From assembly GCA_963707125.1 (NCBI GenBank), contig CAVPOU010000007.1:22333-86332 (forward strand): DNA of 64,000 bases. Reading direction: 5' to 3'. Positions 5,604 through 58,518 of the stretch are shown here, piece after piece. How positions within the stretch are numbered: position 1 is the first letter of the stretch; every line of letters begins with the position of its first letter. Both the position numbers and the translations under genes were made by a program. Source of the stretch: an uncultured delta proteobacterium. GTDB taxonomy: Bacteria; Desulfobacterota; DSM-4660; Desulfatiglandales; HGW-15. The notes below the pieces were generated by a model, which was not told the DNA's origin, made no database searches, and saw nothing but the letters and a program-made list of their open reading frames with translations.

Positions 5604-6635
5604 CTACACGATGTGAACGACAATGGCGTGCTCTTCCACCCCGTTGTTCCCGTACCCGAGCACATTCCAGGAGGCGCTCATGGGCTGCATCCGACCGTTG
5701 TCGTCGGTTGCCCGCGCCATGATCTTGAAATCCCCTTTGCCTTTTGCCTCCCAGACAAATTGCCACTGCCTCCAAGCGAATTTCTCCTGTGGGCCTATAA
5801 ACGTGGCGGGCTCCCAACTGCTGCCGTTATCGACTGAAACCTCCACCCGCTCAACTTCCCCCTCCCCGGCGTAGGCTGCCCCCAGGATCGTTATAGGTCC
5901 CACGGGCAGGCTTTCGCCCTGAAGGGGTTGAGTGATAATCGAGTTCAGTTTGATGGCTGTCACAACCGATCCGCTCTTGGGGTCCTGGTCCTTTTGAAAC
6001 ACGCGATAGACCTTGTCCATGAAAAAACCTTCGTAAGGCCGGTCCATGAGCGTGATCTTGTGCAGCCATTTGGCGCTGTTCGCGCCGGTCCACCCCAGAG
6101 CCAAAGCCCGCAGAGGATATCCGTGTTTAAGGGGCAGAGGTTCGCCGTTCATCTCGTAGGCCAGGAGGGTGGAGGACATGGCTTTTTCAAGGGGAATGCT
6201 CCGGATAAAAGGGATGCCGGAGCTTCCGAGAGGCTTGTCCATTCCCTGAAAGGCGACGTGCTTTGCGTCCGGCATGGGACGCGCCCTTACGAGGATGTCC
6301 CGAAGCCAAACGCCTCCCCATACGGCATTGCCCGCTCCCCCTATGGTCCAGGGATTGCCGGATGCTTTTTCTGCGAGAAGAGAGCGACCGTTTCCGGAAC
6401 ACTCCAGGGTGTTGGAGACTATGGCCTTTGGCATGCGGGTGATCTGATCATAAGAAAGTCGAATGGGATCTTCCACCAGCCCATCGATGTGGAGTCGCCA
6501 CTCAGCCGTAGAGACGGGTTCCTGAGGGATTTCTCCCTGGTTCCGATCGAAAAAAACGGCATTTGATGTGATCCAGGAGCGAAGATGGGAAATAGGGGTT
6601 TCTGCATTCAAAGGCCTCTCGGTCATGATCCGCAT
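5604..6635 (-). CDS. sulfite-oxidase-family molybdopterin oxidoreductase (no signal peptide seen)
   Basis: TERPLNAETP...HLRSWITSNAVFFDRNQGEIP...TLECSGNGRS (conserved Mo-ligand Cys context), followed by a C-terminal Ig-like dimerisation-type segment. Confidence 0.8.
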   Translation of the reverse strand: MRIMTERPLNAETPISHLRSWITSNAVFFDRNQGEIPQEPVSTAEWRLHIDGLVEDPIRLSYDQITRMPKAIVSNTLECSGNGRSLLAEKASGNPWTIGGAGNAVWGGVWLRDILVRARPMPDAKHVAFQGMDKPLGSSGIPFIRSIPLEKAMSSTLLAYEMNGEPLPLKHGYPLRALALGWTGANSAKWLHKITLMDRPYEGFFMDKVYRVFQKDQDPKSGSVVTAIKLNSIITQPLQGESLPVGPITILGAAYAGEGEVERVEVSVDNGSSWEPATFIGPQEKFAWRQWQFVWEAKGKGDFKIMARATDDNGRMQPMSASWNVLGYGNNGVEEHAIVVHIV

Positions 6636-6718
6636 TTTCTCAGCTCATCGTCGTCTCCTCCATGGAATCAAGCATTCACAAAAGAGCTCTATCCATTAGG
6701 CCTGCTAAGTCTCCCGAC

Positions 6719-7024
6719 TTATCGCTGGCTCGCAGCCGACTTGTACTTGGCGTACACGTCGTGGACTTTTCGCTTGAGGGCTTTGAGCTTTTTCGAATCC
6801 TCTTTAGAAAGCCATGAAGGTTCGCTGATGGAAAAGAGGGAGTTACTGATGTCGTCAAGAGCGCGCTCGCTGGCCTCACACCATTCTAGGGTACAGGCAT
6901 TGACCATCTTTGATGTGAAATCGATTTCTTTTTCGAGTAATCCCAGAGACTGCTCAAGATTCTCTACGAATGATTTCCACCCTTCAAATACTTTTTTCCT
7001 TACGATTTCATCGGGCATTTCCAT
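6719..7024 (-). CDS. hypothetical small helical protein upstream of the Mo-oxidoreductase
   Basis: A 101-aa ORF on the same strand, 84 nt upstream of 6635, with charged helical composition. No family recognised. Confidence 0.4.
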   Translation of the reverse strand: MEMPDEIVRKKVFEGWKSFVENLEQSLGLLEKEIDFTSKMVNACTLEWCEASERALDDISNSLFSISEPSWLSKEDSKKLKALKRKVHDVYAKYKSAASQR

Positions 7025-7179
7025 TGGCTTGTCCTCCTCTTAAGATTTTTGACTAATTTAAAGCCCTTAAACGATAAAGCAAGAGAGATCTATTGAATAC
7101 TTACGCCAATCCTATCGCATGTGAGCCGGTGCATTGATTCACAAAAAGGCACTGGACTTATACTGAATCTCATCTTAAA

Positions 7180-7626
7180 GTGAGTTTAAATGTAATGGAC
7201 GTGGAGGCAGTCATGCAACTAGGATTTGCTCAATTCCTAAAACTTTACGCCATATCCGTGCCTGTTTTTTTCCTGATCGATTTCCTTTGGCTCGGCTTGA
7301 TCGCTAAACCTTTTTATGACAGGCACTTAGGGTACATCCTTCGAAGCCAAGTCCTTTGGACGGCTGCGATTCTGTTCTATCTCTTCTTCCTCCTCGGCCT
7401 GGTTGTGTTTGTCATAGCCCCTGCAGTCGAATCCGGATCTCTTGCAAAGGCGATTTTCTTGGGTCTGTTTTTTGGTTTCATCACTTACCAGACCTATGAG
7501 CTGACGAACTACGCGCTGGTGAAAGACTGGCCTCTCATCGTAGTGATCGTGGACATCGCGTGGGGAATGGTGCTCTCCAGCCTCGTCAGCGCGATCACCT
7601 TTCTACTTGCCACAAAGGTTTTCTAG
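7180..7626 (+). CDS. integral membrane protein, DUF2177-like
   Basis: Four hydrophobic segments (LKLYAISVPVFFLIDFLWLGLIAKPFY...). Family assignment is from memory. The start could be an internal Met. Confidence 0.55.
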   Translation: MSLNVMDVEAVMQLGFAQFLKLYAISVPVFFLIDFLWLGLIAKPFYDRHLGYILRSQVLWTAAILFYLFFLLGLVVFVIAPAVESGSLAKAIFLGLFFGFITYQTYELTNYALVKDWPLIVVIVDIAWGMVLSSLVSAITFLLATKVF

Positions 7627-7781
7627 TATCAAGAGCCTTCCCTTGATGGTAGTGGAGTTTGCCTGGTCTGCCAAGGGACCGGACAATATTTCAAAATTCT
7701 TCTGGGTTACACTTGACATGCACTTCCGGCGCTTATATTATCTTTATCTTATTAACGTAAACTTCAAAAGGAGGGTGTAAG

Positions 7782-7949
7782 ATGGCGAAGAAGGATGTGC
7801 ATAAGCAAAGATTTGTTTGGGTAAAGGACAAGTCCGGAAATGAGTTTGTGTGCCGAATCGACGACCTGAAGGACCCGAAGAAGGTAGACAAGGAGGACCT
7901 CAAGAACTGCGTCGATGATGCTTCGAGAGCGATCAACATAGGCGACTAG
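7782..7949 (+). CDS. small basic protein, 55 aa (below ORF-track cutoff)
   Basis: AAAGGAGGG lies 5-6 nt before ATG 7782. Translation is MAKKDVHKQRFVWVKDKSGNEFVCRIDDLKDPKKVDKEDLKNCVDDASRAINIGD. It is followed by a clean terminator. Confidence 0.45.
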   Translation: MAKKDVHKQRFVWVKDKSGNEFVCRIDDLKDPKKVDKEDLKNCVDDASRAINIGD

Positions 7950-7986
7950 TTAAAGGTCCACCTGGAAGTCGGGTCAAAAACCATGG

Positions 7987-8014
7987 ACAGGGTCTCTAAG
8001 ACCCTGTTTTTTTT
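7987..8014 (+). terminator. rho-independent terminator
   Basis: ACAGGGTCT / AGACCCTGT stem (7987-7995 / 7999-8007) followed by a T8 run. Confidence 0.6.
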
Positions 8015-8065
8015 GATTCCCCAAGTAGATTTAAAGGCAGTGTCTCAATTATGCCTCTGCAAGTG

Positions 8066-8140
8066 TGTCATTTCGAGCGAATGCGAGAAATCTTGGCGTT
8101 CAGCACAGTTAAAAGATCTCTCCCTTCGGTCGAAATGACA
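8066..8140. repeat. imperfect inverted-repeat (REP/hairpin-like) intergenic element
   Basis: TGTCATTTCGAGCGAATGCGAGAAATCTT pairs with AAAAGATCTCTCCCTTCGGTCGAAATGACA; the arms are complementary apart from a few mismatches. Confidence 0.6.
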
Positions 8141-8212
8141 ACTTATCTCCGGAATACAAACTGCGGCTGGAACTTCAGAACCATGAAGCCGGAAAGAAAG
8201 GGAGGTTGCCGG

Positions 8213-8682
8213 ATGATAATGAAGTCCATGTGTTCGATTTGTATTCTCCTTTTCTTTATAGCGGTTTTTCCATGGCGCAAGCAGGTGAAAAGGGTTCTGT
8301 CGCAGATCTTGATCTCGACGCGCTGCGCTGGAAGAACCGTGTTCTTGTTCTTTTTTCTCCTTCGGAATCCGACGTTTCATTTCAATTGCAAAAGCAGGGT
8401 TTGGCTTCGAGCACAGAAGGGGTGCTCGATCGTGAACTCATGGTCCTGGAAATTATAGAACAAGGGCAGAGCAGGGCCGGCAATCAGCTCCTGTCGCAAA
8501 AATCTGTTCAGAATATCCGCAGGAGACTCGGGGTGCAGGCAGGGCCTTTTCAGGTTTTGTTGATCGGAAAAGACGGTGGCGTCAAGCTCCGTTCCTCAGA
8601 ACCGGTTTCGGTGAAGGACATTTTCGGTCTCATTGACAGCATGCCCATGCGCCAGCAGGAAATGGAGAGCAGGAAAAAATAA
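8213..8682 (+). CDS. secreted DUF4174-like protein; apparent 1-nt indel in a T5 run (8265-8269)
   Basis: GGGAGG (8199-8204) precedes ATG 8213, giving a signal peptide MIMKSMCSICILLFFIAVF. The domain (RWKNRVLVLFSPSE...DRELMVLEI) is in the adjacent frame (track ORF 8206-8682, TTG start). One extra T would give ..FIAVFSMAQAGEKGS. Confidence 0.55.
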
Positions 8683-8702
8683 CCCGTTTGAGAGATTCAG
8701 AA

Positions 8703-10304
8703 CTACGTCCTCATCCTGTGCTCGATCCTCAATAGCCTAGGCTGCTGGAACACATTGAGCCGTCCGGCAAGCCAGGTCCAGGCTGAAAAAGGGACGGTTG
8801 CCCATCCGAACAAACGTTCCTTGGCGGAGACAGGGCCGAGCTCCTTTTCAATGTCCTTCAAGAACACTCTGGCCTCTCTCCTCCGGTCCCCATTAGGTCC
8901 AAAGAGGATCGCAGGATAGAGCCCTGGAAGGGCGCTGCGGACATATCCTTTCATCCGCTCTGCACGACCGTGCAGCAGGGGATTAAAAGAATTTTTCAGG
9001 TTGCGGTAGCCTTCGAACCATGTTCGCACCACGCGGATGAGGGAGGGACCCAGGAGTTCAAAGGCCTTCCGGTAGAGCTCACGCTGAAGATTCTCAAGCT
9101 CTGTTGGAGTGAAATGAGGGTGCTTGAAGTGCATGGAGAACCCATCGAAGGTTCGGTAGTCAGGGTGGTCAAGGTATTCTGGAAGATAGCGCCCCTCGGC
9201 AACGACCTGGCGGTGAAGGGGCGTGCCCGGAAAAGCGAAATAGATGAGGATTTGCCATAGAGCCGGACCGAGCTCCGTGAGCTTTCTGAAATCCTCCAAG
9301 ACCCGTGACCGGTCCTGGAAGGGAAACCCGACGATCATGGAGGTGAGGATCGCCACACCGCGCGATTGCAGGCCTTGATAGAGTGCGTCGAGGTCCTCTC
9401 CCTTCAACTTGTCATATCCGGATCCAGACCCCTCGAAGGCAGTCCACAGAATGTCAAATCCCATTTCCGCTATTTCGTCTGCCGTGAACTGGGACAGACC
9501 TCTCACACTCCCAAACCCCATGATTGAAAGGGGCTTGCCGCCTTCCCGCACGCAGGCAAGAAATTCCCTCGCTCTTTTGGCGTGGATGAAGAAGTCTTCG
9601 TCGATGATGATGAAGCCGCTCAATTCATCACCGGCATCCCTTGCCTTTTGTTCCATGAGAAGGATGGTTTCATAGAGCTGCCGGCCGCTTGAAACAAAGG
9701 GAACGTATTTGCGATTGAAAAAGTGGGACGTGCAGCAGAAGTCGCATCCATTGGGGCACCCGAGACCGCCCGTGATATGAGCCACTTTCGTGTTCAGAGG
9801 GTAGGAAAAGACCCGCGGCGATTGGATGGGTGCGTAGGGGTGGCGGATGGGGCGTTCAGGGTTCTCGCCCAGGAGCCTTCGCATAAAGCCGATGCCTTCT
9901 TCCCTGCAGATGAAATTCCCGAAAGGAGCAAGCTCATCATCAGGAAGGACCGTGCCATATCCGCCGAGGACGATCTTCGATCGGGGTGAGTACTTCCGTA
10001 TGAGGTCTGCCATGCGTCGGAGTTTGTGGAAGGTGGCAACGACGAAATTGATGCCAATGTAGTCGTAGTTTCCGGTCTGGACTTCACGGAGGAATTCGTG
10101 CTCCGAGGGATAGTGGAGAACCACAGACGGGGCGTCGATGTTCTCTGCGATATAGTCAAGCCCCCAACAGCGGATCACCTGGCGATAGCTGAAGATGCCC
10201 TGGCTGCGTGTCACCTGAGCGTGAAAGAGTTCAGCGCCCACGGAATCCCCTTCGCCATTTCCCCCAAAGGGACGGCAAACGGTCGTGAGCAGCAAATTCG
10301 GCAC
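8703..10304 (-). CDS. B12-binding-domain radical SAM protein
   Basis: The N-terminal cobalamin-binding-type domain (IVLGGYG) is followed by GGLGCPNGCDFCC (CxxxCxxC). Confidence 0.85.
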   Translation of the reverse strand: MPNLLLTTVCRPFGGNGEGDSVGAELFHAQVTRSQGIFSYRQVIRCWGLDYIAENIDAPSVVLHYPSEHEFLREVQTGNYDYIGINFVVATFHKLRRMADLIRKYSPRSKIVLGGYGTVLPDDELAPFGNFICREEGIGFMRRLLGENPERPIRHPYAPIQSPRVFSYPLNTKVAHITGGLGCPNGCDFCCTSHFFNRKYVPFVSSGRQLYETILLMEQKARDAGDELSGFIIIDEDFFIHAKRAREFLACVREGGKPLSIMGFGSVRGLSQFTADEIAEMGFDILWTAFEGSGSGYDKLKGEDLDALYQGLQSRGVAILTSMIVGFPFQDRSRVLEDFRKLTELGPALWQILIYFAFPGTPLHRQVVAEGRYLPEYLDHPDYRTFDGFSMHFKHPHFTPTELENLQRELYRKAFELLGPSLIRVVRTWFEGYRNLKNSFNPLLHGRAERMKGYVRSALPGLYPAILFGPNGDRRREARVFLKDIEKELGPVSAKERLFGWATVPFSAWTWLAGRLNVFQQPRLLRIEHRMRT

Positions 10305-10374: not shown

Positions 10375-10600
10375 TCAAGAGCGCGCATGCCGAAGGGCAT
10401 CGGCCAGCTTTTGATAGATGACCAGCAGCTCGTCCCCCGGGTTCATCGAGCGGTCGGGGCTCCAGATGGCAGCGATCTCCTTGTCCTCAATTTCCAGGCG
10501 CCGGCAGAGCAGCCGGGCCTGGTGCCAGGTCGGCAACCAGACCAGTTTCTCGCAGATGGCTTCGATGCTGCCGAATATGCTGATGAATCGCGGTAGACTC
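10375..10600 (-). other. coding-looking small reading frame without a canonical start, upstream of the radical SAM gene
   Basis: Reverse frame ..LSLPRFISIFGSIEAICEKLVWLPTWHQARLLCRRLEIEDKEIAAIWSPDRSMNPGDELLVIYQKLADALRHARS*. An ATG (MKLFILS*) sits one frame off, across T-runs. Confidence 0.25.
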
Positions 10601-12498: not shown

Positions 12499-14681
12499 AT
12501 CGTGGCCTCTCCGATGATGACGATCCCCAGATGCCCGTCCACGGTGATGAAGTCCCCTGTCTTTATCTGGTTGACCGCGTCCGGGACTCCTGTCACACAG
12601 GGGATACCGTACTCCCGTGCGATGATGGCCCCATGGATGAGCATGCCCCCCCGCCTCTCAACGATTGCCGCGGCAAGGGGAACCACGAAAGTCATTCCGG
12701 GATCTACTGCATCACACACGAGGATCTCCCCCTTTTGAAAACTAAAAAGGTCTGAGGAGTCGAGCACGACCCTCGCTTTTCCCATAGCCATTCCGGGTCC
12801 GGCAGGCTGACCCAGAATCTGTCTCGACTTGAGCGAGAAAGTTTTCTTTTTAGCGGGTTGCTGCGCGTCTTGATCGCCCTTGTGGGCCGGCGACTCGCTT
12901 TGCACAGCCTTGAACAGGTCGTCGATTTCTACGGCCTTGCTATCACGCATGGACCTTCCCTGGGTGCGCCGGCGGCCTTCCTCCACTGCGGCCAGCACCT
13001 GGCCCTGGATCTTGTCCAGGTAGATGTTGTCATCATCCCTTAGCCGATAGCTGGCCCGGGCCAGATCGAGGAGTTCAAGGGCATAAGACTTCTGCTCTTC
13101 GTCAAAACGAGATAAGAAGTCCTTTTCCAATTCTCCTGGATCTCCGGCTCTTGCGGATGTTCCCCGCTCAGGGCGGGAGGCCATTTGCAGAACCAGTTTC
13201 AGAAGTCTGTCCCTGTCCTCGCCCAATCGACCCTTCTCCCATGCCAGGTCTCCGAATTGATCCAGAACCCGCTTCAGCCCTTTCTTGACCTCCGGTTTGC
13301 AATCATCCCCTTTACCTTCCAGGATGCAGGCCTTGTTGCTCGGGTCTTTTCTGATCAGCTCAGCGAGGTCCACCAGCATTTGATTTCTCCGCACACTGAC
13401 CATGCCGGAGCCTGCTAAGAGCGATACGAACTGAAAGGGATCCTTGGGTTTCATGAGGTCATTGTAGATCTTGCCAAACAGCCTCATGCCGTGGGCAAAG
13501 GGAATACAGTCGCGCCTGTAAGTCTCCAGCCACTCTTTGTGGATACGGCTTCGCTGACCTATCTCCTGTGCGAGGACTGAATCCGAAAGGGCAGGGAGAT
13601 TCACCATGCCCATCTCACGGGCCACCGTTTCCATTCCGGGTATGAGTTCCTTCTCGATTTTTGTCCGAAGACCTCTCAGATTGTCAAAGCTCCTGTGAAG
13701 ACTGAGATACCAGGGGCGCTGGTCCTCTGATGATGGGGCAGGAGTCGTAATGGGTCGAGCCTGAAGCGCATGGAGGATTTCCTTGCAATAGGTCCACTCA
13801 ACGTCCTGAGGGGAGCCGAACAATGCCTCTGCCTTCATGACAAGCCCATAGACCTCTTTGACTTCCCTATCCCTGAGAGGGGCGCGATGACGAAGGGTGC
13901 CCTGGAGATTCTCTAATCGGACACCCTGCGGCCCAGGCACCAGGATCTTTTCTCTGCGGGCAGGATGATGAGACAGGATCTTCCCGCTGTCCCGATTCAA
14001 GATCCATCGGTCCGGTTCCACTGTCCCGTCTACCAGTCCCTGATTGAGCCCGTAGACGGCCTCTACGGCGGATTGCTTCTCATGGATCGGGCTCATGCCG
14101 AAGACGACCCCTGAGCGTTCCCCAAAGACCATCTCCTGGACCACCACCGCCATGGTGCTTTTCTCCACATCAAGGCCCAACTCCTGCCGGTAGAGAAGAG
14201 CCCGATCAGACCACAGGGAAGCCCACACGAGCTTGATGTTCTCCAAAATGGATTCCAGGCCCCGGATATTGACAAAGGATTCATGGAGGCCTGCGAAGGA
14301 TGTCTTGGAAGAGTCCTCGCCGGGAGCCGAGGACCTGACTGAGACTGGCCGCCGGGAAAACCGAGAGGCGAGGAGGGGCCTCAGTTGTTTCCGGAGTTCG
14401 CTCGGTAGAGGTGTCTTGATAAACATGTTTCGGATGCGAAGGGCCGTGTCCCAGATCTCCTCCCATCGCATCTCTTCAAATGGCTTGCGGTAGAGCTCCA
14501 TGTGCATCTGATCCCGCAGGCCCGTTGATGTTACGTACTCGTGATAGGCTTCCGTGCTTATGCAGATTGCCTCAGGAATCTGCATTCCGCTTTTTTGCAT
14601 GGCAGCCAGGGCAAAGCCCTTGCCGCCGACACGCGAGCGGTCGCTTTGGGTGACTTCATGAAGGGGGAGGGCTAGCTTCAT
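12492..14681 (-). CDS. PEP-utilising-enzyme family protein: N-terminal PPDK-type ATP-grasp plus C-terminal swivel phosphohistidine domain, no TIM-barrel domain
   Basis: RVGGKGFALAAMQKSGMQIPEA at the N-terminus; GEILVCDAVDPGMTFVVPLAAAIVERRGGMLIHGAIIAREYGIPCV at the C-terminus. The start is taken at ATG 14681, which overlaps the upstream stop (ATGA). Confidence 0.8.
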   Translation of the reverse strand: MKLALPLHEVTQSDRSRVGGKGFALAAMQKSGMQIPEAICISTEAYHEYVTSTGLRDQMHMELYRKPFEEMRWEEIWDTALRIRNMFIKTPLPSELRKQLRPLLASRFSRRPVSVRSSAPGEDSSKTSFAGLHESFVNIRGLESILENIKLVWASLWSDRALLYRQELGLDVEKSTMAVVVQEMVFGERSGVVFGMSPIHEKQSAVEAVYGLNQGLVDGTVEPDRWILNRDSGKILSHHPARREKILVPGPQGVRLENLQGTLRHRAPLRDREVKEVYGLVMKAEALFGSPQDVEWTYCKEILHALQARPITTPAPSSEDQRPWYLSLHRSFDNLRGLRTKIEKELIPGMETVAREMGMVNLPALSDSVLAQEIGQRSRIHKEWLETYRRDCIPFAHGMRLFGKIYNDLMKPKDPFQFVSLLAGSGMVSVRRNQMLVDLAELIRKDPSNKACILEGKGDDCKPEVKKGLKRVLDQFGDLAWEKGRLGEDRDRLLKLVLQMASRPERGTSARAGDPGELEKDFLSRFDEEQKSYALELLDLARASYRLRDDDNIYLDKIQGQVLAAVEEGRRRTQGRSMRDSKAVEIDDLFKAVQSESPAHKGDQDAQQPAKKKTFSLKSRQILGQPAGPGMAMGKARVVLDSSDLFSFQKGEILVCDAVDPGMTFVVPLAAAIVERRGGMLIHGAIIAREYGIPCVTGVPDAVNQIKTGDFITVDGHLGIVIIGEATIH

Positions 14682-15133
14682 GCTTTGACGTGGACCTCCA
14701 CCACGCTCTGAAACCGAGTGACAACGAAAAAGGTCTGGACCTTGATTTCGCAGAAGGCGCACGTGGGCGAGTGGACGAACTCCCTCAGATGGGGATGTTT
14801 GGCAAGATAAAGCTCCAATGCCTTTTTCCTCTTGCGGGCATTCACCTCTTCGGCTTTGCCCGTTGCCGTTGCGGCCATGGCCCAGCGGAAGTCGGATGCC
14901 TTGTTGGATCGGTTGTCCACGAGCATCGCCACCCTCGAATCACCCGAGAGGTTACCATATTTGCGCGTGGACCGGGTGGTGGCGAAATAAAGACTCTTCA
15001 GGTCATCGCTGGAGGCGAAGGCTACCAGGCTGGCATAAGGCTGCCCCCGGTCCTGGGTGGCCAGCACGGCCAGTGGTTGGGAGTTCAAAAGCTTCCTGAG
15101 GTCTCTCTTGACTCTGTTGAGGTCCTTATCCAT
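14678..15133 (-). CDS. pyridoxamine 5'-phosphate oxidase-like FMN-binding split-barrel protein
   Basis: LAVLATQDRGQPYASLVAFASSDDLKSLYFATTRSTRKYGNLSGDSRVAMLVD is a typical PNPOx-like pattern. Confidence 0.75.
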   Translation of the reverse strand: MDKDLNRVKRDLRKLLNSQPLAVLATQDRGQPYASLVAFASSDDLKSLYFATTRSTRKYGNLSGDSRVAMLVDNRSNKASDFRWAMAATATGKAEEVNARKRKKALELYLAKHPHLREFVHSPTCAFCEIKVQTFFVVTRFQSVVEVHVKA

Positions 15134-15326
15134 GGGATCCCTTCTGTGGTTCGTTTTTTGATTTTAGTTGGTGTGATACAAAGTCCCTTTTCGGAGCCGC
15201 AGTATAGATGATTTTGGAATGGTTGTCATTAGGTACCCAGATTTGTCTACTCCGACACGCCTGATAGAAGATTTGAGTTGCAATCGGGCCTCTGAAGCAC
15301 CACCCGCGCGCTTTCCAATACGACAC

Positions 15327-15617
15327 TCATCGGAAAGAAATGCAGCAGGTCGGAGTTGGAACGGTTCTCGCCACAGCAGAAGAGGCCAGAAAGGTTTCAA
15401 GTTGAAGCTTATCCATGTTACTGGTTCTAAGGATTGCTGGAGCTTCCAGCGAGGTTTTGAATGAGTGGAAGGAGTTGAACATCAGGGGGTGGAAGTTTGG
15501 CGTTGGCGCACCGTTCAGCCACGAACATTGAAGCAGGTGAAGGGTTATGGACTTGGTCTCATAGTCGTGATCGATTTGAAGCAGGTGTTTAACGGCCTTC
15601 ACCTCCATGCCCAGTTC
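15327..15617 (-). pseudogene. partial duplicate of the 3' half of mutT plus its downstream flank
   Basis: Same-orientation copy of 20375-20717. It translates to ..VKAVKHLLQIDHDYETKSITLHLLQCSWLNGAPTP, matching the MutT sequence (one L/F mismatch). It lacks a ~52-bp block and the 5' half of the gene. Confidence 0.8.
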
Positions 15618-15678
15618 GAGGTCTGCCCCCCTACTTGATAGGAACGGTCTTTCCGGGTCAGTGGGAAGGGAACAAAGT

Positions 15679-17070
15679 TCACGAATGGAGTTGGTCCCCG
15701 TGGAGCAGGAGCACATCCTCTTCCTTCCCCAGTTCCAGCATCCCATCGGTAAAACCGCCCTTGCTGAACAGCATGAAACGGCTTGTGCGGTCACCATTAT
15801 GCCAGTCAACCAGATGCGATTTCCTTACGAGCTCTTCATACACATTCACACCAACTCTCTTTTTGCTCCATTTGCACTCTCCGAAGTACACAGTCTTTGT
15901 TTCCTCATCCAACGCCACCAGGTCTACTTCCTCATTTCTTGACCACCACTTGCCTATGACCGTGAACTGCATTTGCCCCTCTTCCATCATGCGGGTGCAT
16001 ATCTCCCTGCAGGCAGCCTCGTAAGCCTGCGATAGGTGCTGTTCCAGAGATCCCCTGATGAGCTTTAGGACATAGTCGACCTTGCCTATTTCAATGCGGC
16101 TTTTGTTGGGGAACACGTACTTGAACCAAAAAGTGAAGAACTTGTCCTGGATACCATAAAGCCCTTGCTTGCTCTTTTCAGGATTTTTTTCAGTTACGGG
16201 TATCTCCTTTTTCACGAAACCGAGGCTTCTGAGAATATCCACATAGCGTGACACGTGGCTCTTCTCAAACCCCGTTTCGTTAATCATCTCCGAGATCTTT
16301 CTTTTTCCCTGGGAGATTGCCTTAAGGAGGGCAAAGTAGTTTCTCGGCTCCCGCAGTTCCTCCATCAGCACATAGTCCACCTCGTTTGAGAAAAAGGTTC
16401 CCTTTTCGAGTACGAGCAAGCGAATGTTTTCCAGGATGTCAAGTTCAGGATTGACCTTCTCCAGGTAAGCTGGAATCATACCAAAGACTGCATAGATCGC
16501 CATCAGCTCATCAAAGGATTTCCTGGGGAAGAACTCGTTGAGGCTGTCAAAGGGCATTTCCCTGACTTCCAGGGAGCCTGTTCTCCTCCCGTAGAGGGGG
16601 GCCTTGTAGAGGAGCACCTCCTTCTCCATCATGCCGATGCTGGAACCCATCAAAATAAGAAAAATGTTGCTGTGCTTCAGTTGTTCGTCGATTCCTTTCT
16701 GGAAGATGGACGACACGGCCCTGTTGGAGTTCACAAGATAGGGGAATTCATCGATAATGACCACCAATCTGCCCCTTTCTTTCTCCTTCATATAACGAAA
16801 AACCTGCTCCCAATCCTTGAATCCGGAATCCATCAGGATGGTGTCACGGAAATGCTCCCCAATGACGCGGCCAAGGCTTTTCAGCTGCTCGGTTTCGGCA
16901 ATGCTGTCGGCCAGGAAGTAAATCGCTTCCTTGCCCTCGATAAATTCTTGAACGAGCCTTGTCTTTCCGACACGCCTCCGCCCATACACAGGGATGAACT
17001 GAAATCCAACACCTTTGAAGGCCCTTTCCATCACGGCAAGTTCACTTTTTCTGTCCACGAATCTCATCAT
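15679..17070 (-). CDS. AAA-type ATPase, archaeal-ATPase (Arch_ATPase) + DUF234 family
   Basis: FVDRKSELAVMERAF...IPVYGRRRVGKTRLV (Walker A), LVVIIDEFPYL (Walker B), a winged-helix-like middle region, and a C-terminal DUF234-like WWSRNEEVDLVALDEE. Confidence 0.85.
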   Translation of the reverse strand: MMRFVDRKSELAVMERAFKGVGFQFIPVYGRRRVGKTRLVQEFIEGKEAIYFLADSIAETEQLKSLGRVIGEHFRDTILMDSGFKDWEQVFRYMKEKERGRLVVIIDEFPYLVNSNRAVSSIFQKGIDEQLKHSNIFLILMGSSIGMMEKEVLLYKAPLYGRRTGSLEVREMPFDSLNEFFPRKSFDELMAIYAVFGMIPAYLEKVNPELDILENIRLLVLEKGTFFSNEVDYVLMEELREPRNYFALLKAISQGKRKISEMINETGFEKSHVSRYVDILRSLGFVKKEIPVTEKNPEKSKQGLYGIQDKFFTFWFKYVFPNKSRIEIGKVDYVLKLIRGSLEQHLSQAYEAACREICTRMMEEGQMQFTVIGKWWSRNEEVDLVALDEETKTVYFGECKWSKKRVGVNVYEELVRKSHLVDWHNGDRTSRFMLFSKGGFTDGMLELGKEEDVLLLHGDQLHS

Positions 17071-17080
17071 CCCACCTTAG

Positions 17081-17115
17081 AGTATAATCGCGATTAGTAT
17101 AATCGTAATTATACT
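17081..17115. promoter_or_regulatory. operator-like repeats upstream of the ATPase gene
   Basis: AGTATAATCG is repeated at 17081 and 17096. AGTATAAT-CGTA-ATTATACT (17096-17115) has 8-nt inverted arms. It lies 11-45 nt upstream of the start at 17070. Confidence 0.3.
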
Positions 17116-17353
17116 TATTGACAAGTTCTTTGAGGAAGCTTCGCAGTGACCGGTAACCGCCCGGTGGAACCTGAAGGAGGTGCTGCCGCCTGCACGTGGA
17201 AAGAAGATGGTCACTGAAGACAACGTGGACGAAGAGAGCAGCGCCGGTCAAATCGATTGGTACTACCGCCAGTCCCGCGCCACCTGATCAAAGGACTTCC
17301 TTAAGAAGAATACACAAAACGAGCGGTCAGAAGGGCAGGTGACTCATCCATCC

Positions 17354-17408
17354 GTGGTGCCCGGACGAAGATACCTGGGTTCCAGTTCAGACTCCACGAT
17401 ATGGTATC
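17354..17408. repeat. 55-bp repeat, copy A (copy B at 17940-17994)
   Basis: GTGGTGCCCGGACGAAGATACCTGGGTTCCAGTTCAGACTCCACGATATGGTATC compared with copy B gives 46/55 identical by my count. Confidence 0.7.
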
Positions 17409-17725
17409 ATCATGACCCGTCAAACCCCGATCCCAAATGGGACGCACCATAGGAAGGAGAAAAAATGGAGCCTGCGCCATGAGAAATCAGGGCAGGAGCG
17501 AGGAGAGTTGTTCGCCGTTTTCGATGGCGTCGAAAGCGACCCCAAGGAAAGGGAGGCAGAACAGCAGATTGCCGACCTCATGACTGTTGAAAGAGGAGAT
17601 GAATCGCATCTCTGAAGAAGTCGGTGATCGGGGTGAAATGTATCTGGTCCTCATCATAGCGATCGGCACCGCCATAGAGCAGAAAGGCTGTGGCCTTTGG
17701 GTAGGATATAATTCTGGCGTACATG

Positions 17726-17752
17726 CCGCCATTTTATATAAAAAAATGGCGG
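17726..17752. other. perfect 10-bp hairpin with AT loop
   Basis: CCGCCATTTT-ATATAAA-AAAATGGCGG. Confidence 0.6.
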
Positions 17753-17939
17753 TATCAATGCCAAAATGTCTTGTGAAAAGGGGAGTTCCGCGCTGTCCCA
17801 CTTCGGCCGAACAGGCTATCCCAGCGCAATGGGTTGAAGCCTTTGGCGAAGGTGATGCTCCTGCGCCCCCGCGCGCTGGGCGTCACGCGAACCGAAAAGA
17901 CCGTCGGAGGCGGGGCATACTGTGCAAAACTCGTCCTCA

Positions 17940-17994
17940 GTGGTGCCCGGATGAAGGGCCCTGGGTTGCAATTGAGACTCCATGACATGGTATC
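17940..17994. repeat. 55-bp repeat, copy B
   Basis: GTGGTGCCCGGATGAAGGGCCCTGGGTTGCAATTGAGACTCCATGACATGGTATC. Confidence 0.7.
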
Positions 17995-18555
17995 CATTCT
18001 AGACTCTTTGTCGTGCCAGGGGCGCTTTCGCATGCCATGGTAAATCGCAATCGACCCTCTACCTGCCCGCTGGACTGACTTCATTTGGTTATCGTCGGTG
18101 GATGATCGCCCCGATCTGCAACGGACTTGGATCAGTAATCGCTCGTTCTTGAGCGACCCCATATACCCATCTGACCTGCTCCCATGAGCCAAGAAATGGA
18201 AATCGAGAGATGCCACCTGGATGGTGACCTCCGCCTTTTTTCGCTCAAAACGCCACCTCTCAACAAATCTCGGGCTTGCTCCTCCTTACGTTCACGGCAC
18301 ACCATACCAGCTCGGACGCCCTCGTCCACCGCAATCCTCCAGTCCTCAACATGCTGTGCCAAGTGTGCGCTTGACACACAACGGCGGATTCCCCTATACT
18401 CCGCCACAACTGAAGCAAGTTCTTATCACCTCACCTCACTGACAGACTGCCCTGGGCTTAAACGCATCGAGGCGAGCGCACCGTCGCCGAAAAGCCTTGC
18501 ATAGAGTCCCGGATTCCCTTAAAGAGAAAGCACATTCTTACAGAGGAGTGCAGAG

Positions 18556-19056
18556 ATGAAAGTACTGGTGGCTTATTATTCGGACAGTGGAAACACAGAG
18601 AAAGTGGCCAAAGCCATTTACGAGGAGCTCAGTTTTGTGGAAAAGAGGCTGACCTCCATCAAGGAGCAAGACCCTGTGAGCGACTGCGATGTCCTATTTC
18701 TGGGTTTTCCGGTTCAGAACCACAGCATTCCGGTGGGGGTTGAAAAGTTCCTGAAAAAAATCCCTGCTGGAAAGAAAATCGCTTTATTCGCTACCCATGG
18801 CTCGTTTCGAGGCGGGGAGTTCGCCATGACGGCCTTCTATTACGCGATGAGCCTCACGGTCAAACAGAAGCTCCTCGGAACCTTTGGATGCCGTGGAGAG
18901 GTGAAACCGCGGGTTCTGGAAAAACTGATGAAACGGCCTCAGGACCGGTATTGGGCCATGGAGGCTCAAAGTGCGGCCGGACACCCGGATGAGGGAGATC
19001 TGGCTGACGCGAGGAAATGGTCCTGGTGGATGCTCATGAAGGCGCAATCCCTCTAG
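18556..19056 (+). CDS. flavodoxin-family protein
   Basis: MKVLVAYYSDSGNTEKVAKAIYEEL is an FMN-binding T/S-x-T-G-x-T-type N-terminus. GAGGAG lies upstream of the ATG. Confidence 0.75.
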   Translation: MKVLVAYYSDSGNTEKVAKAIYEELSFVEKRLTSIKEQDPVSDCDVLFLGFPVQNHSIPVGVEKFLKKIPAGKKIALFATHGSFRGGEFAMTAFYYAMSLTVKQKLLGTFGCRGEVKPRVLEKLMKRPQDRYWAMEAQSAAGHPDEGDLADARKWSWWMLMKAQSL

Positions 19057-19085
19057 CCGGAGAGAACTGTTCCCGTTCCCGCCCC

Positions 19086-19751
19086 TCATCCCGCTGAAAG
19101 TTTCTGGAGCAGGACGCTCGTGGTTCTCTCTGTTCTTTCCTGTTCCAGAATCTTCTGGCCTTCCAGATCCAGCACGTAGAAGACGTCGGCCACCTGGTCG
19201 CCCTTGGTGGCGATCTTGGCGATCCGGATGTCGATGCCGAGGGTGAAGAGGGCGCGGGTGATCCGGTAGAGGAGCCCGATGCGGTCGTCGGCGAACCCCT
19301 CGATGAGAGTGAAGAAGTCGGAGGAGCCGTTGTCTACGAGCACACGAGTGTGACGGGCCGGGGCTTTCCTGCGGAAGAGAAGGGAGGGTTCGGCTTTCTG
19401 CTCCAGACGCTCTGAGAGGGAGAGCGTGGCGTCAAGGGTTGCGGCGAGATCGTCTTTGATCCTTCCCCAGATTTCCTCGGGATGGAGAGGGTCCAGCGGA
19501 GGGGTCACCGTGAAAATGTCCACCGCCGTGCCGTCGCACCAGGTGTAAATGCGGGCGGAGAGGATGTTGATGTTGTTGAGAGCCATGACGCCCGTGACGT
19601 CAAAAAACAGTCCGGCTCTGTCTTGGGCCAGGAAGGTGACGTCATAGGTTCCGCTGGCCGGCGCGGCAGCGGCTTCAAGGCAGAAGGCGTTTTGGATCCC
19701 CTGGGCGGTTGCCTCCCGGAGTCGGCGGTGAAGGGTGATGTGCTGGACCAT
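19086..19751 (-). CDS. stand-alone double-ACT-domain protein resembling the C-terminus of GlnD (PII uridylyltransferase); probable gene fragment
   Basis: VTFLAQDRAGLFFDVTGVMALNNINILSARIYTWCDGTAVDIFTV and FTLIEGFADDRIGLLYRITRALFTLGIDIRIAKIATKGDQVADVFYV are two ACT units. The frame is closed by TAG 13 codons upstream of the Met, so no NT/HD domains are present. Confidence 0.65.
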   Translation of the reverse strand: MVQHITLHRRLREATAQGIQNAFCLEAAAAPASGTYDVTFLAQDRAGLFFDVTGVMALNNINILSARIYTWCDGTAVDIFTVTPPLDPLHPEEIWGRIKDDLAATLDATLSLSERLEQKAEPSLLFRRKAPARHTRVLVDNGSSDFFTLIEGFADDRIGLLYRITRALFTLGIDIRIAKIATKGDQVADVFYVLDLEGQKILEQERTERTTSVLLQKLSAG

Positions 19752-19768
19752 GGCGGCCTGAGGCTCGC

Positions 19769-20259
19769 ATGGGTCGGAGCGCCGGTCACGTTTCTACGGG
19801 AGCCCGGCAAGTGGGTAAAGACAAGAGAGTGGCGCAGCGACTTGATGGAGGCCATGGAGGCATGGACTTGCCCCAGGGACTGCTCCACGGCCAGAAGTAC
19901 AAGAAGTGTGGCCTGCCCCTCCACCAAGAGTCAAGTGCCCAGCAGCAGAGTGCAGGACCTTTCACTTTAGTACCCGGGTTCACTGAGCTTGACCGCTTAT
20001 CCAACAGGGTGGTGGATCTCATCGAAGAGGGGCGCCTGGATGAGGCAGAAGCCGTTTGCCATGAGCTCTTGTCACGCTATCCTGACCAGATCGATGGCAC
20101 GGAAAGGCTGGCGGAAGTCTATGAAGCTCGGGGTGAGAAAAAAAGGCCGCGCAATACTATCGCAAGGCGGCCGAATTTGCACAGACATCTCCCGGGTTTG
20201 ATCAGGAACTCATTGATCGGTACCTCTCGCAGTCAAAGCATTTAGAATCCCAAGAATGA
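19769..20259 (+). pseudogene. degenerate SEC-C-motif / TPR-like small protein, frameshift at A7 run (20138-20144)
   Basis: ..GQKYKKCG.. resembles the SEC-C motif but lacks its cysteines. ..RLDEAEAVCHELLSRYPDQIDGTERLAEVYEARGEKK then continues sensibly only in the next frame (AAQYYRKAAEFAQTSPGFDQELIDRYLSQSKHLESQE*, stop 20257-20259). Confidence 0.4.
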
Positions 20260-20374
20260 ACTGGAATAAGAAGAACTATAAGGAATACCAATCCGCAACA
20301 TAAACAAACTCGCCACATAACGATACGCATACTTCAATACGTGATGCCCTTGGCGGGATTGCAGGATGTCTCCT

Positions 20375-20717
20375 TCATCGGAAAGAAATGCAGCAGGTCG
20401 GAGTTGGAAGGGTTCTTGCCACAGCAGAAGAGGCCAGAAAGGTTTCGAGTTGAAGCTTGTCAATGTTGCGGGTTCTGAGGAGTGCCTGAGGTTCGAGCGA
20501 GGTTTTGAATGAGTGGAAGGAGTTGAACATCAGGGGGTGGAAGTTGATAGTTGGCTAGTTCCCCAGGCTTCACCCATCGGAGTTCATCACAACCAATAGG
20601 CGTTGGCGCACCGTTCAGCCACGAACATTGAAACAGGTGAAGGGTTATGGACTTGGTCTCATAGTCGTGATCGATTTGAAGCAGGTGTTTGACGGCCTTC
20701 ACCTTCATGCCCAGTTC
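20375..20717. repeat. direct repeat, copy 2 (partner 15327-15617)
   Basis: It covers 85 bp downstream of mutT plus its last ~86 codons, aligned by eye to copy 1. Confidence 0.8.
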
Positions 20718-20888
20718 TTCCTGGATCTCTCTTTCAAGACAGGCTTCCAGGCTCTCCCCGGGTTCCTGCTTTCCGCCCGGGAACTCCCAGTACCCGGCAA
20801 GATGGCTTCCTTCAGGCCGTCTCGTGATGAGGAGCTTTCCGTCTTTCCAGACCAGACCTGCGGTCACATGAAAATGGGGCTTGCTCAT
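20460..20888 (-). CDS. mutT: Nudix hydrolase, MutT-like 8-oxo-dGTP diphosphatase
   Basis: GYWEFPGGKQEPGESLEACLEREIQEELG is a Nudix box. Confidence 0.85.
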   Translation of the reverse strand: MSKPHFHVTAGLVWKDGKLLITRRPEGSHLAGYWEFPGGKQEPGESLEACLEREIQEELGMKVKAVKHLLQIDHDYETKSITLHLFQCSWLNGAPTPIGCDELRWVKPGELANYQLPPPDVQLLPLIQNLARTSGTPQNPQH

Positions 20889-20893
20889 GTTTA

Positions 20894-22690
20894 TTATCGG
20901 AGTTCCTTGAGCCGCAGCCTGAGGTAAGCTTCTTCGGCCTCCTGATGGCCGGGCGAAATCTCAACCACCTTCTTATAGGTCTCCATGGCTTCCTTCACGT
21001 TGCCCAGCTTTTCCTGGAGCCGGCCGAGCTGGAGGAGCAGATTCACGTCCTTGGGTTTGAGCTTTGCAATCTGGCCGAGCTGCGCGGCAGCAGCCTCTTC
21101 CTTTTCCAGCTTGAGAAGAGCAAAGACCATGTATTGCCTCAACTCGACATTCTCAGGCCGGGCCTGAATGCCTGTTTCCATGATCTCAGCCATCTGCCTA
21201 AAATCGCTGCGGGCATTGAGGTACTCGAAGACAAAAGGGTAGGGCGCTGGGTCACCGGCATTCAGGGAGAGCAGAGCCCTGGCTGCTGCAAAGGCGGAAT
21301 CTTCTTTTTTCTCCTTCTTATAGAGATCTAACAGGAACCGAAGGGTTTCAACATCCTTTGGATGATTTTTCAGGTATGTTTCAAAATAGGAAAGGCTCTT
21401 TCCCCAGTTCCCTGCCTCATATTCAAGGATGCCGAGATTGTAGAGCACGATTTCGTTATCAGGAGCAAGGGCGTATACCTTTTCATAGAGCTCCTTCAGC
21501 CTCTTCTTGTCCCCTTTCTTGTCCGCGATCTGGGCATGAAGCAACAGGGCTCTGAGGGAGTCGGGCTTTCGCCTGAGCACCTCATCCAGATAGGTTTGTG
21601 CCTCATCCGGGTTGCCTTTATTGAATAAGCTCTCCGCCAGGTTCAGGCGGCTCTCAATGTCCTCGGGTTGAAGCGCCACAGCCTGGGCCAGAAACTGATC
21701 GGCTTTTTCTTTGTCCCCTGTCTTCTCATAGAGAGTGGCCAAGTTGTAGTAGAGGTTCACGTCCTTCTTGTCCAGTTCCGTGGCCTTCAAGTAAGAGGCG
21801 ACGGCCTTGTCCGGATCACCTGTTTCCGTGTAGAGGAACCCGAGAGTCTTATACACAGCCAGCTTCTCTTTCGGATCAAGCCGGCTCATAACAGCCTCGT
21901 ATTCGCGGATTGCGTCCGGGAGCTTTTTCGCTTTTTCAAGAGTTCTTGCAAGCCTCAGCCGGAGTTCCGCGTCATCAGGGGTTTTCTGGAGCAAACGCCT
22001 CAAGACGGACACGGCCCCGTTTGAGTCATTCATGCTCTCGTAGACTTCGAAGAGTTCGAAGAACTTCTGTTCCTCGGGCTTCTCCTTCACCATCTCTTCA
22101 AGCAGTTTCGCGGCCTGAGGCCATCTTTTGAGGGACCGGTACTCCCGGATCAGTCGCTCCCTGATCTTGTTGTCCTGGGGAGCCATGTGCCGCGCTTCTT
22201 CCAGAATGGCGATCCGCCGCTCAGGGTCGATGGTCCTTTCCACTTTATCGAGCCAGTCCTCCACGTACGGTTCAATCACCAGATCCACATAGCCCATGTC
22301 CCGGTTTTTTTCTTTCACAAAGACCCTGATGCTGTGCTGCTGAAACAGGGTTTCCTTTGGGAAGAGGGTTGCCAGTTGGATTTTCTCGTAGGTCAAGGCT
22401 TCGATATCCATGTCGCTCGCGACTAACCTGATCCCGACATTAAAGGTGATGTTGGTGGAGACGGTGAGGATTTTGACGTGATCCTGGGGATGGAGACGAA
22501 GGGTTTCTCCCTTGAGGAGTTTCAGCGGCTGGTCGTTCTTTTCCAGGAGGATGAAGTTGAACTGAGGCGAGACATCGTAAAGGCCCGGCCAGACCCACCA
22601 GATAAAGCAAAAAGCGCCCACCACCAGAAGCAGGGTGACCGCAAAGGCCGTCCTGTTCCTCCGAGGACGCTTGCCTTTTCGCTTCTCCAA
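20894..22690 (-). CDS. membrane-anchored TPR-repeat protein
   Basis: N-terminal basic stretch plus TM segment (AFAVTLLLVVGAFCFIWWVW), then many 34-aa A/Y/L-periodic repeats. Confidence 0.8.
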   Translation of the reverse strand: MEKRKGKRPRRNRTAFAVTLLLVVGAFCFIWWVWPGLYDVSPQFNFILLEKNDQPLKLLKGETLRLHPQDHVKILTVSTNITFNVGIRLVASDMDIEALTYEKIQLATLFPKETLFQQHSIRVFVKEKNRDMGYVDLVIEPYVEDWLDKVERTIDPERRIAILEEARHMAPQDNKIRERLIREYRSLKRWPQAAKLLEEMVKEKPEEQKFFELFEVYESMNDSNGAVSVLRRLLQKTPDDAELRLRLARTLEKAKKLPDAIREYEAVMSRLDPKEKLAVYKTLGFLYTETGDPDKAVASYLKATELDKKDVNLYYNLATLYEKTGDKEKADQFLAQAVALQPEDIESRLNLAESLFNKGNPDEAQTYLDEVLRRKPDSLRALLLHAQIADKKGDKKRLKELYEKVYALAPDNEIVLYNLGILEYEAGNWGKSLSYFETYLKNHPKDVETLRFLLDLYKKEKKEDSAFAAARALLSLNAGDPAPYPFVFEYLNARSDFRQMAEIMETGIQARPENVELRQYMVFALLKLEKEEAAAAQLGQIAKLKPKDVNLLLQLGRLQEKLGNVKEAMETYKKVVEISPGHQEAEEAYLRLRLKELR

Positions 22691-58145: not shown

Positions 58146-58260
58146 GAATCGGAAAGACTCCCTTTCCCCACAGACGGCGCCCTGCCGACAACCTGTCTGG
58201 TAACAATCGTGTTGGGCGCATGGCTCAACAAAAAAACGGCTACAGTTTATTTGCCCTGTC

Positions 58261-58322
58261 ATTCCCGCGGAGGCGGGAATCCAGTGATCTCCGGTTCTTC
58301 TGGACTCCCGCCTGCGCGGGAG
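58261..58322. repeat. twin-hairpin REP-like element
   Basis: ATTCCCGC-GGAG-GCGGGAAT (58261-58280) and CTCCCGC-CTGC-GCGGGAG (58305-58322). Confidence 0.6.
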
Positions 58323-58518
58323 CGACGGTGGTGCATTTCCTTCTCTCACTTTGACAAAGAAGTCAAGTTGTCGGAGAGCCTCTCCAGTCTGATTGGATGA
58401 GTTGGGCAACAAGATCGCCAAAGGTCTCACGTTTAAACCGCAGCAGGATAAAATTAAAGAGTTGACACGTGTTGGTGGCTAATATAGATAATTAGTTTGA
58501 AATATCAATCAATTTTGT

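Follow-up and report, generated by a model that had tools for sequence, protein, structure and literature searches.

Three kinds of described system come close to the locus presented here: genomic islands at the 3' ends of genes or at tRNA genes, with their attL and attR; Campbell-type insertions, as in suicide-vector integration and plasmid co-integrates; and defence islands or hotspots that carry PDC-S27 and PDC-S01. These last two are very common putative defence candidates, with an activity that is mostly unvalidated (PMC12988326), and DUF234 and DUF4143, families found at this locus, are PD-(D/E)XK families (PMC3424549). We analyzed a stretch of 64,000 nucleotides (the window) from an uncultured delta proteobacterium (contig CAVPOU010000007.1, positions 22,333 to 86,332), in which a patch of a few kilobases lies between two direct repeats of the 3' part of mutT. 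As proposed in an earlier note on this DNA, the duplication is real and brackets accessory, partly decayed, strain-variable DNA. The DNA behind mutT is best explained as a hotspot that varies between strains and borders a housekeeping block. The hotspot is of an ordinary kind: a patchwork of cassettes gained and lost separately, not one decayed integrating element.

A repeat search of the window returned the direct repeat as two segments in the same orientation, 15327-15507 versus 20375-20555 (181 nt, 91% identity) and 15499-15617 versus 20599-20717 (119 nt, 97% identity). The pair was recovered by blastn of the window against itself (E = 7.6e-98), with no third copy in the 64 kb, and a MAFFT alignment showed a single 52-column gap in the distal copy, facing approximately 20546-20597 of the proximal one. 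Equivalent bases end both copies (15327/20375 and 15617/20717). The repeat starts at codon 58 of mutT; 258 nt of it are coding (85 sense codons and the stop codon), and 85 nt of flank follow. These results bear out the earlier note as to the position and orientation of the copies, the 85-bp flank, and, from the MAFFT gap and the translation, the absence of a ~52-bp block and of the 5' half from the distal copy, which leaves only the proximal gene intact; its count of ~86 codons is corrected to 85 and a stop. Since the distal copy (mutT') lacks codons 1-57, there is one intact and one truncated gene. The product of the intact gene matches Pfam NUDIX_4 (2.2e-27) and scores 97.8 bits against TIGR00586 MutT, 0.1 short of the curated cut-off of 97.9; read from the translation, it has the Nudix box GX5EX7REUXEEXGU at residues 39-61 (GKQEPGESLEACLEREIQEELGM). 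Of this box mutT' retains just the final four residues (ELGM), the catalytic part being gone, and because nearly the whole box is missing it cannot encode an enzyme.

The duplication is also present in other samples. Twenty public metagenome and metatranscriptome runs contain 63-81% of the sampled words of the studied stretch, and Logan contigs from four runs were placed on the window as contig data, with no raw reads or read pairs (hereafter, X-numbers stand for runs and L-numbers for loci or contigs of relatives). The passage from the left flank to copy 1 is spanned by a contig of X4 (14880-15356), that from copy 1 to the ATPase gene by contigs of X1 (15593-17144) and X4 (15562-15895), that from the patch to copy 2 by contigs covering 18410-20404 in X2 and X4, and that from copy 2 to the 5' half of mutT by a contig of X3 (20689-22000). 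Repeat borders are thus crossed in all four runs (X1-X4), and X2 and X4 each contain all four borders. Depth in X2 is equal in the patch (~122-125) and the flanks (96-146). In L172, one short-read contig of 2.6 kb holds both mutT copies, with two different tail alleles, and the MEGAHIT k141 contigs L081, L082, and L171, from other samples and 99.0-99.6% identical to the window, run unbroken through the proximal copy. The repeat is genuine, and an assembly artefact, raised beforehand as a possible refutation, is not borne out: short-read contigs cross all borders and L172 has both copies.

Sister strains carry several arrangements behind mutT. L171 has the same order as the window and is collinear with it over 23876-18006 (99.0%). 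In L172 and L173, mutT (window 20888-20445) is followed by 53 unmatched nt and then by window 17169-15327 (97.8% identity), a piece comprising the ATPase gene with its upstream region and the distal mutT', again with the 52-bp deletion; beyond it comes a distal flank unrelated to PNPOx (TAGGAGCATCAAGGGATCTGATCG...). The unit of ATPase gene and mutT' thus stands directly behind mutT, and 17170-20444 is absent. In L174 and L175, whose MutT is 89% identical to that of the window at the amino acid level, mutT is followed by 105 nt of flank, 316 unmatched nt (in L174 these take the place of window 17901-20354), window 17900-17683, an intact gene for a 381-aa AAA_14/DUF4143 ATPase, window 17703-17161, and a Hint-domain gene. 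Metagenomes contain some of these forms too. In X1 the L172-type joint 17169->20445 has a depth of 6.5, the ATPase gene 10.6, and 17282-17973 (M2) 6.07, as expected for a mix of the window and L172 forms. X3 combines an L172-type flank on the distal side with M1, M2, and the ATPase gene, and the joint 17169->20445 is not among its Logan contigs; a loose end at 17161 matching L174/L175 was found in X1 and in metatranscriptome X13.

Presence/absence differences among strains are bounded at 17161-17169, 17900, 20355, and 20445 (variant borders 17169/20445, 17900/20355, and 17161), not at the repeats. The patch comprises three or more modules, each varying on its own among strains 92-99% identical, which contradicts the earlier view of one decayed element bounded by its repeats. 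The window and L172 agree exactly in the join of the ATPase 3' flank to mutT codon 58 and in the 52-bp deletion of mutT', indicating that both arose once. At least four sequences (window proximal, window distal, L172 distal, and L174) are joined within ~20 nt of one point, 85-105 nt past the mutT stop, and in L172 the two copies cease to share their downstream sequence 21 nt past the stop. Homology between the flank of the outgroup L174 and the window extends to 20355, passing the repeat border by 20 nt, so that the proximal context is old and the join between mutT' and PNPOx is derived.

No integrase, transposase, or excisionase was found with Pfam among the patch open reading frames (ORFs) or in the six frames of 17071-18555, as the first reading of the sequence had stated; the search for integrase remnants that it proposed for 17100-18550 gave none. 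There is no recombinase in the gene calls of L171, L172, and L174, nor in the 13 kb to the right of mutT, and the patch has no match in phage and plasmid collections. Its composition is native: the comparison of GC and tetranucleotides with the flanks gave no foreign signal, with a GC of 0.535 versus 0.539 for the background and a tetranucleotide distance that 69% of background windows equal or exceed. The ATPase module alone is slightly AT-richer (4th percentile).

The tails of mutT were compared over the 172 columns after the 52-bp block. The proximal and distal tails of the window are identical at 158 of these 172, while the distal tail agrees at 169 (98%) with the working tail of L171, a contig otherwise 99% identical to the window. 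Agreement of the window distal tail with L172 is 99/102 and with L173, 98/102. These matches represent the alpha allele, a 137-aa version with the ancestral TAG stop, which is distal in the window and working in L171; the beta allele, a 142-aa version, is proximal in the window, L081, and L082, and the distal copy of L172 is a third tail type. X2 and X4 contain all four window junctions, yet only the alpha version of the diagnostic segment, and X1 and X3 only the beta version. The two mutT tails recombine, and the simplest reading of these alignments is gene conversion between copies or exchange between strains.

To the right of mutT lie 13 kb of housekeeping genes only (TPR, secF, secD, tgt, queA, alr, argS, and tatC), collinear with relatives L086, L087, and L174. 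The left flank (PNPOx, PEP enzyme, DPRP photolyase-like, B12-radical-SAM, DUF4174, DUF2177, and epimerase) is collinear with L163 and L164 at 80-92% nucleotide identity. Both flanks are conserved blocks, and in this sense they are core chromosome as first suggested, but PNPOx/PEP is not an old neighbor of mutT. PNPOx adjoins mutT in no relative found, the direct contact suggested as a check never being seen, and each relative has other DNA on that side. Upstream of PNPOx there are toxin-antitoxin genes (DUF433/DUF5615) in L163 and an HTH/SocA gene in L164, followed in both by Fer2_4, FAD oxidoreductase, and H+-PPase; L170 has unrelated DNA, and L167, L168, and L169 (three samples, 92-96% identical to the window in nucleotides) have a gene for a 439-aa flavoprotein. 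Homology of L167 and L168 to the window ends exactly at 15326, the base before copy 1. In a genome-contig search for the closest MutT no match exceeded 58% identity (locus L001); behind mutT, L001 and L087 have cupin/TPR/M48 and then nadD-proAB-obg, none of which is in the window. Exact look-ups of the PNPOx product and the 463-aa ATPase product found nothing. A microhomology (CCGATGA / CTGATGA) considered at the mutT'-PNPOx join stays unproven, as its expected product mismatches the observed junction.

On balance, we lean toward an old duplicative insertion of the single-crossover type behind mutT, later remodeled by deletion, replacement, and gene conversion. In an ancestor, accessory DNA would have entered by single-crossover (Campbell-type) or otherwise duplicative recombination in the last ~355 bp of the mutT region, leaving an intact mutT on the proximal side and a truncated mutT' on the distal one. 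Modules would later have been lost or replaced (17170-20444 lost in L172/L173; 17901-20354 replaced by 316 nt in L174), and ~1 kb would have been deleted within the DUF4143 ATPase gene of the window. In the window lineage, replacement of the distal flank would have brought mutT' to abut the PNPOx block. The mutT tails still recombine, by gene conversion or by exchange between strains. Because no recombinase is encoded, movement would depend on host homologous recombination. The order of these events, like the single-crossover origin, is what we infer from the observed anatomy, variant arrangements, and allele swapping.

Several points weigh against such a history. The L172 form may be either a deletion product of a window-like form or the precursor of it, and this history gives no account of its 53-nt filler. 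A mutT site still lacking the insertion (an empty site) was not recovered from the same species, and there is no sign of a circular intermediate, although contigs breaking inside the repeat cannot reveal circles. The Logan contigs do break there, so that metagenome linkage across the repeat comes from depth only, and the alpha/beta pair of the window might conceivably reflect the merging of two strains into one consensus by a long-read assembly. Finally, several junctions fall within ~20 nt after the 85-nt flank, which could fit a specific recombination site, and this clustering keeps site-specific integration alive as a reading. A joint 15323->20375 in X2 was considered as an empty site and rejected: it has just 30 letters inside the repeat, which fit either copy.

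A segmental tandem duplication from inside mutT to behind the DUF234 ATPase gene, its second unit trimmed to mutT' and 85-97 nt of flank, could also have produced the repeat, but we consider it unlikely. The join of the ATPase 3' flank to codon 58 resembles a duplication junction and is common to the window and L172, and deletions are demonstrably frequent at the locus. However, this scheme requires a deletion starting exactly at the repeat end, the proximal and distal contexts of L172 already differ from 21 nt past the stop, and the duplicated sequence never exceeds ~355 bp in any extant form.

It appears distinctly improbable that the locus is the relic of a site-specific integrative island at the mutT 3' end, in which attP would have brought the replacement tail, the integrase would have been deleted, and the repeats would be attL and attR. 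Direct repeats of a gene 3' end do bracket accessory DNA with cargo of the defence-island type, and the joining of at least four sequences near one point behind the mutT stop is in line with such an origin. Against it stand the lack of an integrase or remnant in the patch or in the gene calls of L171, L172, and L174, a repeat of 343-355 bp that is long for an att site, modules that vary independently with borders off the repeats, and the native composition. Of the two origins offered earlier, a scar of site-specific integration and a duplicative rearrangement, the second is the better supported. In addition, when the retrieved loci longer than 2.5 kb (<=10 kb of flank around mutT) were blasted against themselves, no mutT 3' duplication other than that of L172 appeared; a copy in L050 that resembles a paralogue and a short repeat of the flank in L022 are different things. 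The repeat of L022 (Omnitrophota) is direct, 101 bp long, and 99% identical (10449-10549 / 12925-13025); it starts ~100 nt beyond the match to mutT, and 2.4 kb lie between its copies.

We find it very doubtful that the DUF234 ATPase-nuclease (the PDC-S27 candidate) and mutT' form a minimal mobile cassette free of recombinase, with mutT' as a portable homology arm for host recombination behind mutT of any related strain, or with the PD-(D/E)XK ATPase itself promoting homing. Such a cassette must have an identical internal joint in two contexts, as the window and L172 do, which is no proof of it; if it existed, the dead mutT' would be a by-product store of alternative C-terminal mutT alleles. 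Finally, that the repeat, or the difference between its copies, is a mis-join or a mixed-strain consensus of the long-read metagenome assembly is barely credible and, for the repeat itself, largely refuted. An extra A at 18520 in all four metagenomes and the single version of the diagnostic tail segment in each of them speak for it, but every border is crossed by short-read contigs from other samples, L172 has both copies with two tail alleles on a single contig, patch and flank depths are equal in X2, and the MEGAHIT contigs of L081, L082, and L171 traverse the proximal copy.

Table 1. Features of the locus behind mutT, with positions in the window.
Feature	Positions	Strand	Remarks
Distal mutT' pseudo-copy	15327-15617	-	Codon 58 to stop + 85 nt flank; 52-bp deletion; alpha tail allele
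ATPase_2 + winged helix-turn-helix (wHTH) + DUF234 ATPase gene	15679-17070	-	Pfam 7.7e-27 and 7.8e-27; PADLOC PDC-S27
Conserved upstream region of ATPase cassette	17071-17169	-	Cassette border 17161-17169
DUF4143 ATPase relic	17581-17724	-	In-frame deletion: first 10 + last ~40 codons of an AAA_14/DUF4143 ATPase
Multi-copy non-coding element	18059-18485	+	Sigma70-like site at 3' end, facing the flavodoxin gene
Flavodoxin_3 gene	18556-19056	+	Pfam 2.5e-23; identical arrangement in L081 and L171
Stand-alone double-ACT gene	19086-19751	-	Matches just the C-terminal ~210 residues of GlnD models
SEC-C/TPR-like gene	19769-20245	+	Frameshifted at A7 run ending at 20137
Proximal repeat copy	20375-20717	-	3' part of working mutT + 85 nt flank; beta tail allele, 142-aa protein
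Intact mutT (NUDIX)	20460-20888	-	142 aa; last gene of core block argS-alr-queA-tgt-secDF-TPR-mutT
ATPase module	15618-17169 + mutT'	-	One unit; identical internal joint in two contexts (window, L172)
Module M2	17170-17900	-	Downstream of mutT in L174/L175; holds the DUF4143 ATPase relic
Third module	17901-20354		Flavodoxin, ACT-ACT, and frameshifted SEC-C/TPR genes + multi-copy non-coding element

The genes between the repeats are those first described (DUF234/Arch_ATPase, flavodoxin, GlnD-type double ACT, and a frameshifted SEC-C/TPR-like ORF), as seen with Pfam. The DUF234 ATPase matches PADLOC PDC-S27 over residues 1-419 (1.7e-42), and a 1340-nt contig in metatranscriptome X13 covers its gene. 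At the cassette border, homology to L172/L173 ends at 17169 and that to L174 at 17161. The intact DUF4143 ATPase of L174 matches PDC-S01 (8.5e-59); relative to it, ~1 kb is deleted inside the gene of the window. In L174 both ends of the deleted part carry TACCCAAAGG, and the deletion in the window falls between those two words. From PADLOC, Pfam, and the literature, both the PDC-S27 and the PDC-S01 matches have the ATPase plus PD-(D/E)XK architecture. In L176/L177 the two ATPase genes adjoin each other, and an HTH and M78 peptidase pair lies close to them; DNA homology of these loci to the window is limited to 17131-15677, and there is no mutT' there. The pair of putative ATPase-nuclease defence candidates is the likely selected cargo. 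As a caution for annotation, the distal mutT' is a pseudogene fragment and 17581-17724 a gene relic.

The latter accounts for part of the ORF-poor 1.45 kb as gene debris. No Pfam match was found in the six frames of 17071-18555, and Rfam gave nothing at E <= 1 in 15000-21000; at the gathering threshold the window has one tRNA, outside this region. A direct repeat of 58 nt (83% identity) has one copy within M2 (17351-17408) and the other just past its border (17937-17994). Each copy, translated from the minus strand, gives D-T-[IM]-S-W-S-L-N-x-N-P-G-x-F-[VI]-R-A-P, and the two may be what is left of a pair of paralogous gene ends. Besides the one more A after 18520, single-base indels occur at 17311 and 17371 in several metagenomes; these differences, all in non-coding DNA, probably stem from consensus errors or from indels between strains.

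The non-coding element at 18059-18485 has, in all four runs, a depth of 6-9x single-copy at 90% likeness and 15-30x at 85%, and its depth is also high in metatranscriptome X13. It has no further copy in the window and no Rfam or Pfam match, and no fold signal was detected on either strand of 18040-18500 (z = 0.26 and -0.06). A promoter scan predicts the best promoter-like site of the region at 18371-18400 (TTGACA-18-TATACT), pointing at the flavodoxin gene. The element may be a dispersed promoter-bearing repeat. In L167/L168, a similar promoter core and TCACNTCACCTCACTGA stand ahead of an unrelated flavoprotein gene.

The ORF of the TPR-like gene is open in L082 and X1, where the run has eight A (A8), and A7 is common to the window, L081, and L171; this distribution makes A7/A8 a real polymorphism and not a consensus error. 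In 19769-19950 the SEC-C-like motif of the window shows two Cys->Gly changes relative to L081 (LDGCHGG...KKCC versus LDGGHGG...KKCG). The loss of cysteines and the frameshift fit a decay of this gene in the window strain. Elsewhere, an element of ~57-70 nt (80-90% identity) occurs in L086 (10549-10606 and 2259-2328), L164 (13730-13785), and the window (58256-58327, near tRNA-Leu), and appears to be another dispersed small repeat family in the intergenic regions of relatives. In L163, at 6307-9986, gene calling splits the PEP-utilising enzyme gene into several parts, with an RVT_1 reverse-transcriptase gene behind, which may be a retroelement insertion or poor assembly.

What looks like a textbook integration scar need not mark a single element: at this locus the repeat has stayed in place, and strains 92-99% identical have exchanged the DNA inside and outside it one module at a time. 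The locus also gives a natural context for the candidates PDC-S27 and PDC-S01, with gain, loss, and decay of both in one species-level population, a pattern that fits accessory, conditionally useful genes. Nothing in this should surprise a specialist.

Compared with genomic islands of the 3'-end/tRNA type, the locus has their direct repeats containing the 3' end of the target, with an intact target and a displaced partial copy in direct orientation, and their accessory, strain-variable, partly decayed cargo between the copies. Unlike them, it has no integrase or other recombinase, nor a remnant, in the window or in the gene calls of sister contigs; its repeat is of 343-355 bp, its presence/absence variation is not bounded by the repeats, its composition is that of the host, and its distal copy lies on different flanks in different strains. 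With defence islands or hotspots it shares both ATPase + PD-(D/E)XK families, one intact and one relic, the two ATPase genes side by side in L176/L177 beside HTH and M78 peptidase genes, and the toxin-antitoxin genes on the PNPOx side of neighboring strains; the flavodoxin, ACT-ACT, and SEC-C/TPR genes are not defence-like, and the PDC candidates are themselves unvalidated (PMC12988326). It differs from Campbell-type insertions in lacking a known circular donor, in offering no explanation of where a circle with 280-355 bp of mutT would come from in nature, and in having an insert that has since been remodeled. Like them, it has one contiguous piece of the target duplicated around the insert, flush at both ends and identically delimited in the two copies, a full gene beside a truncated one, and repeats that stay recombinogenic, here as the exchange of alleles between the two tails.

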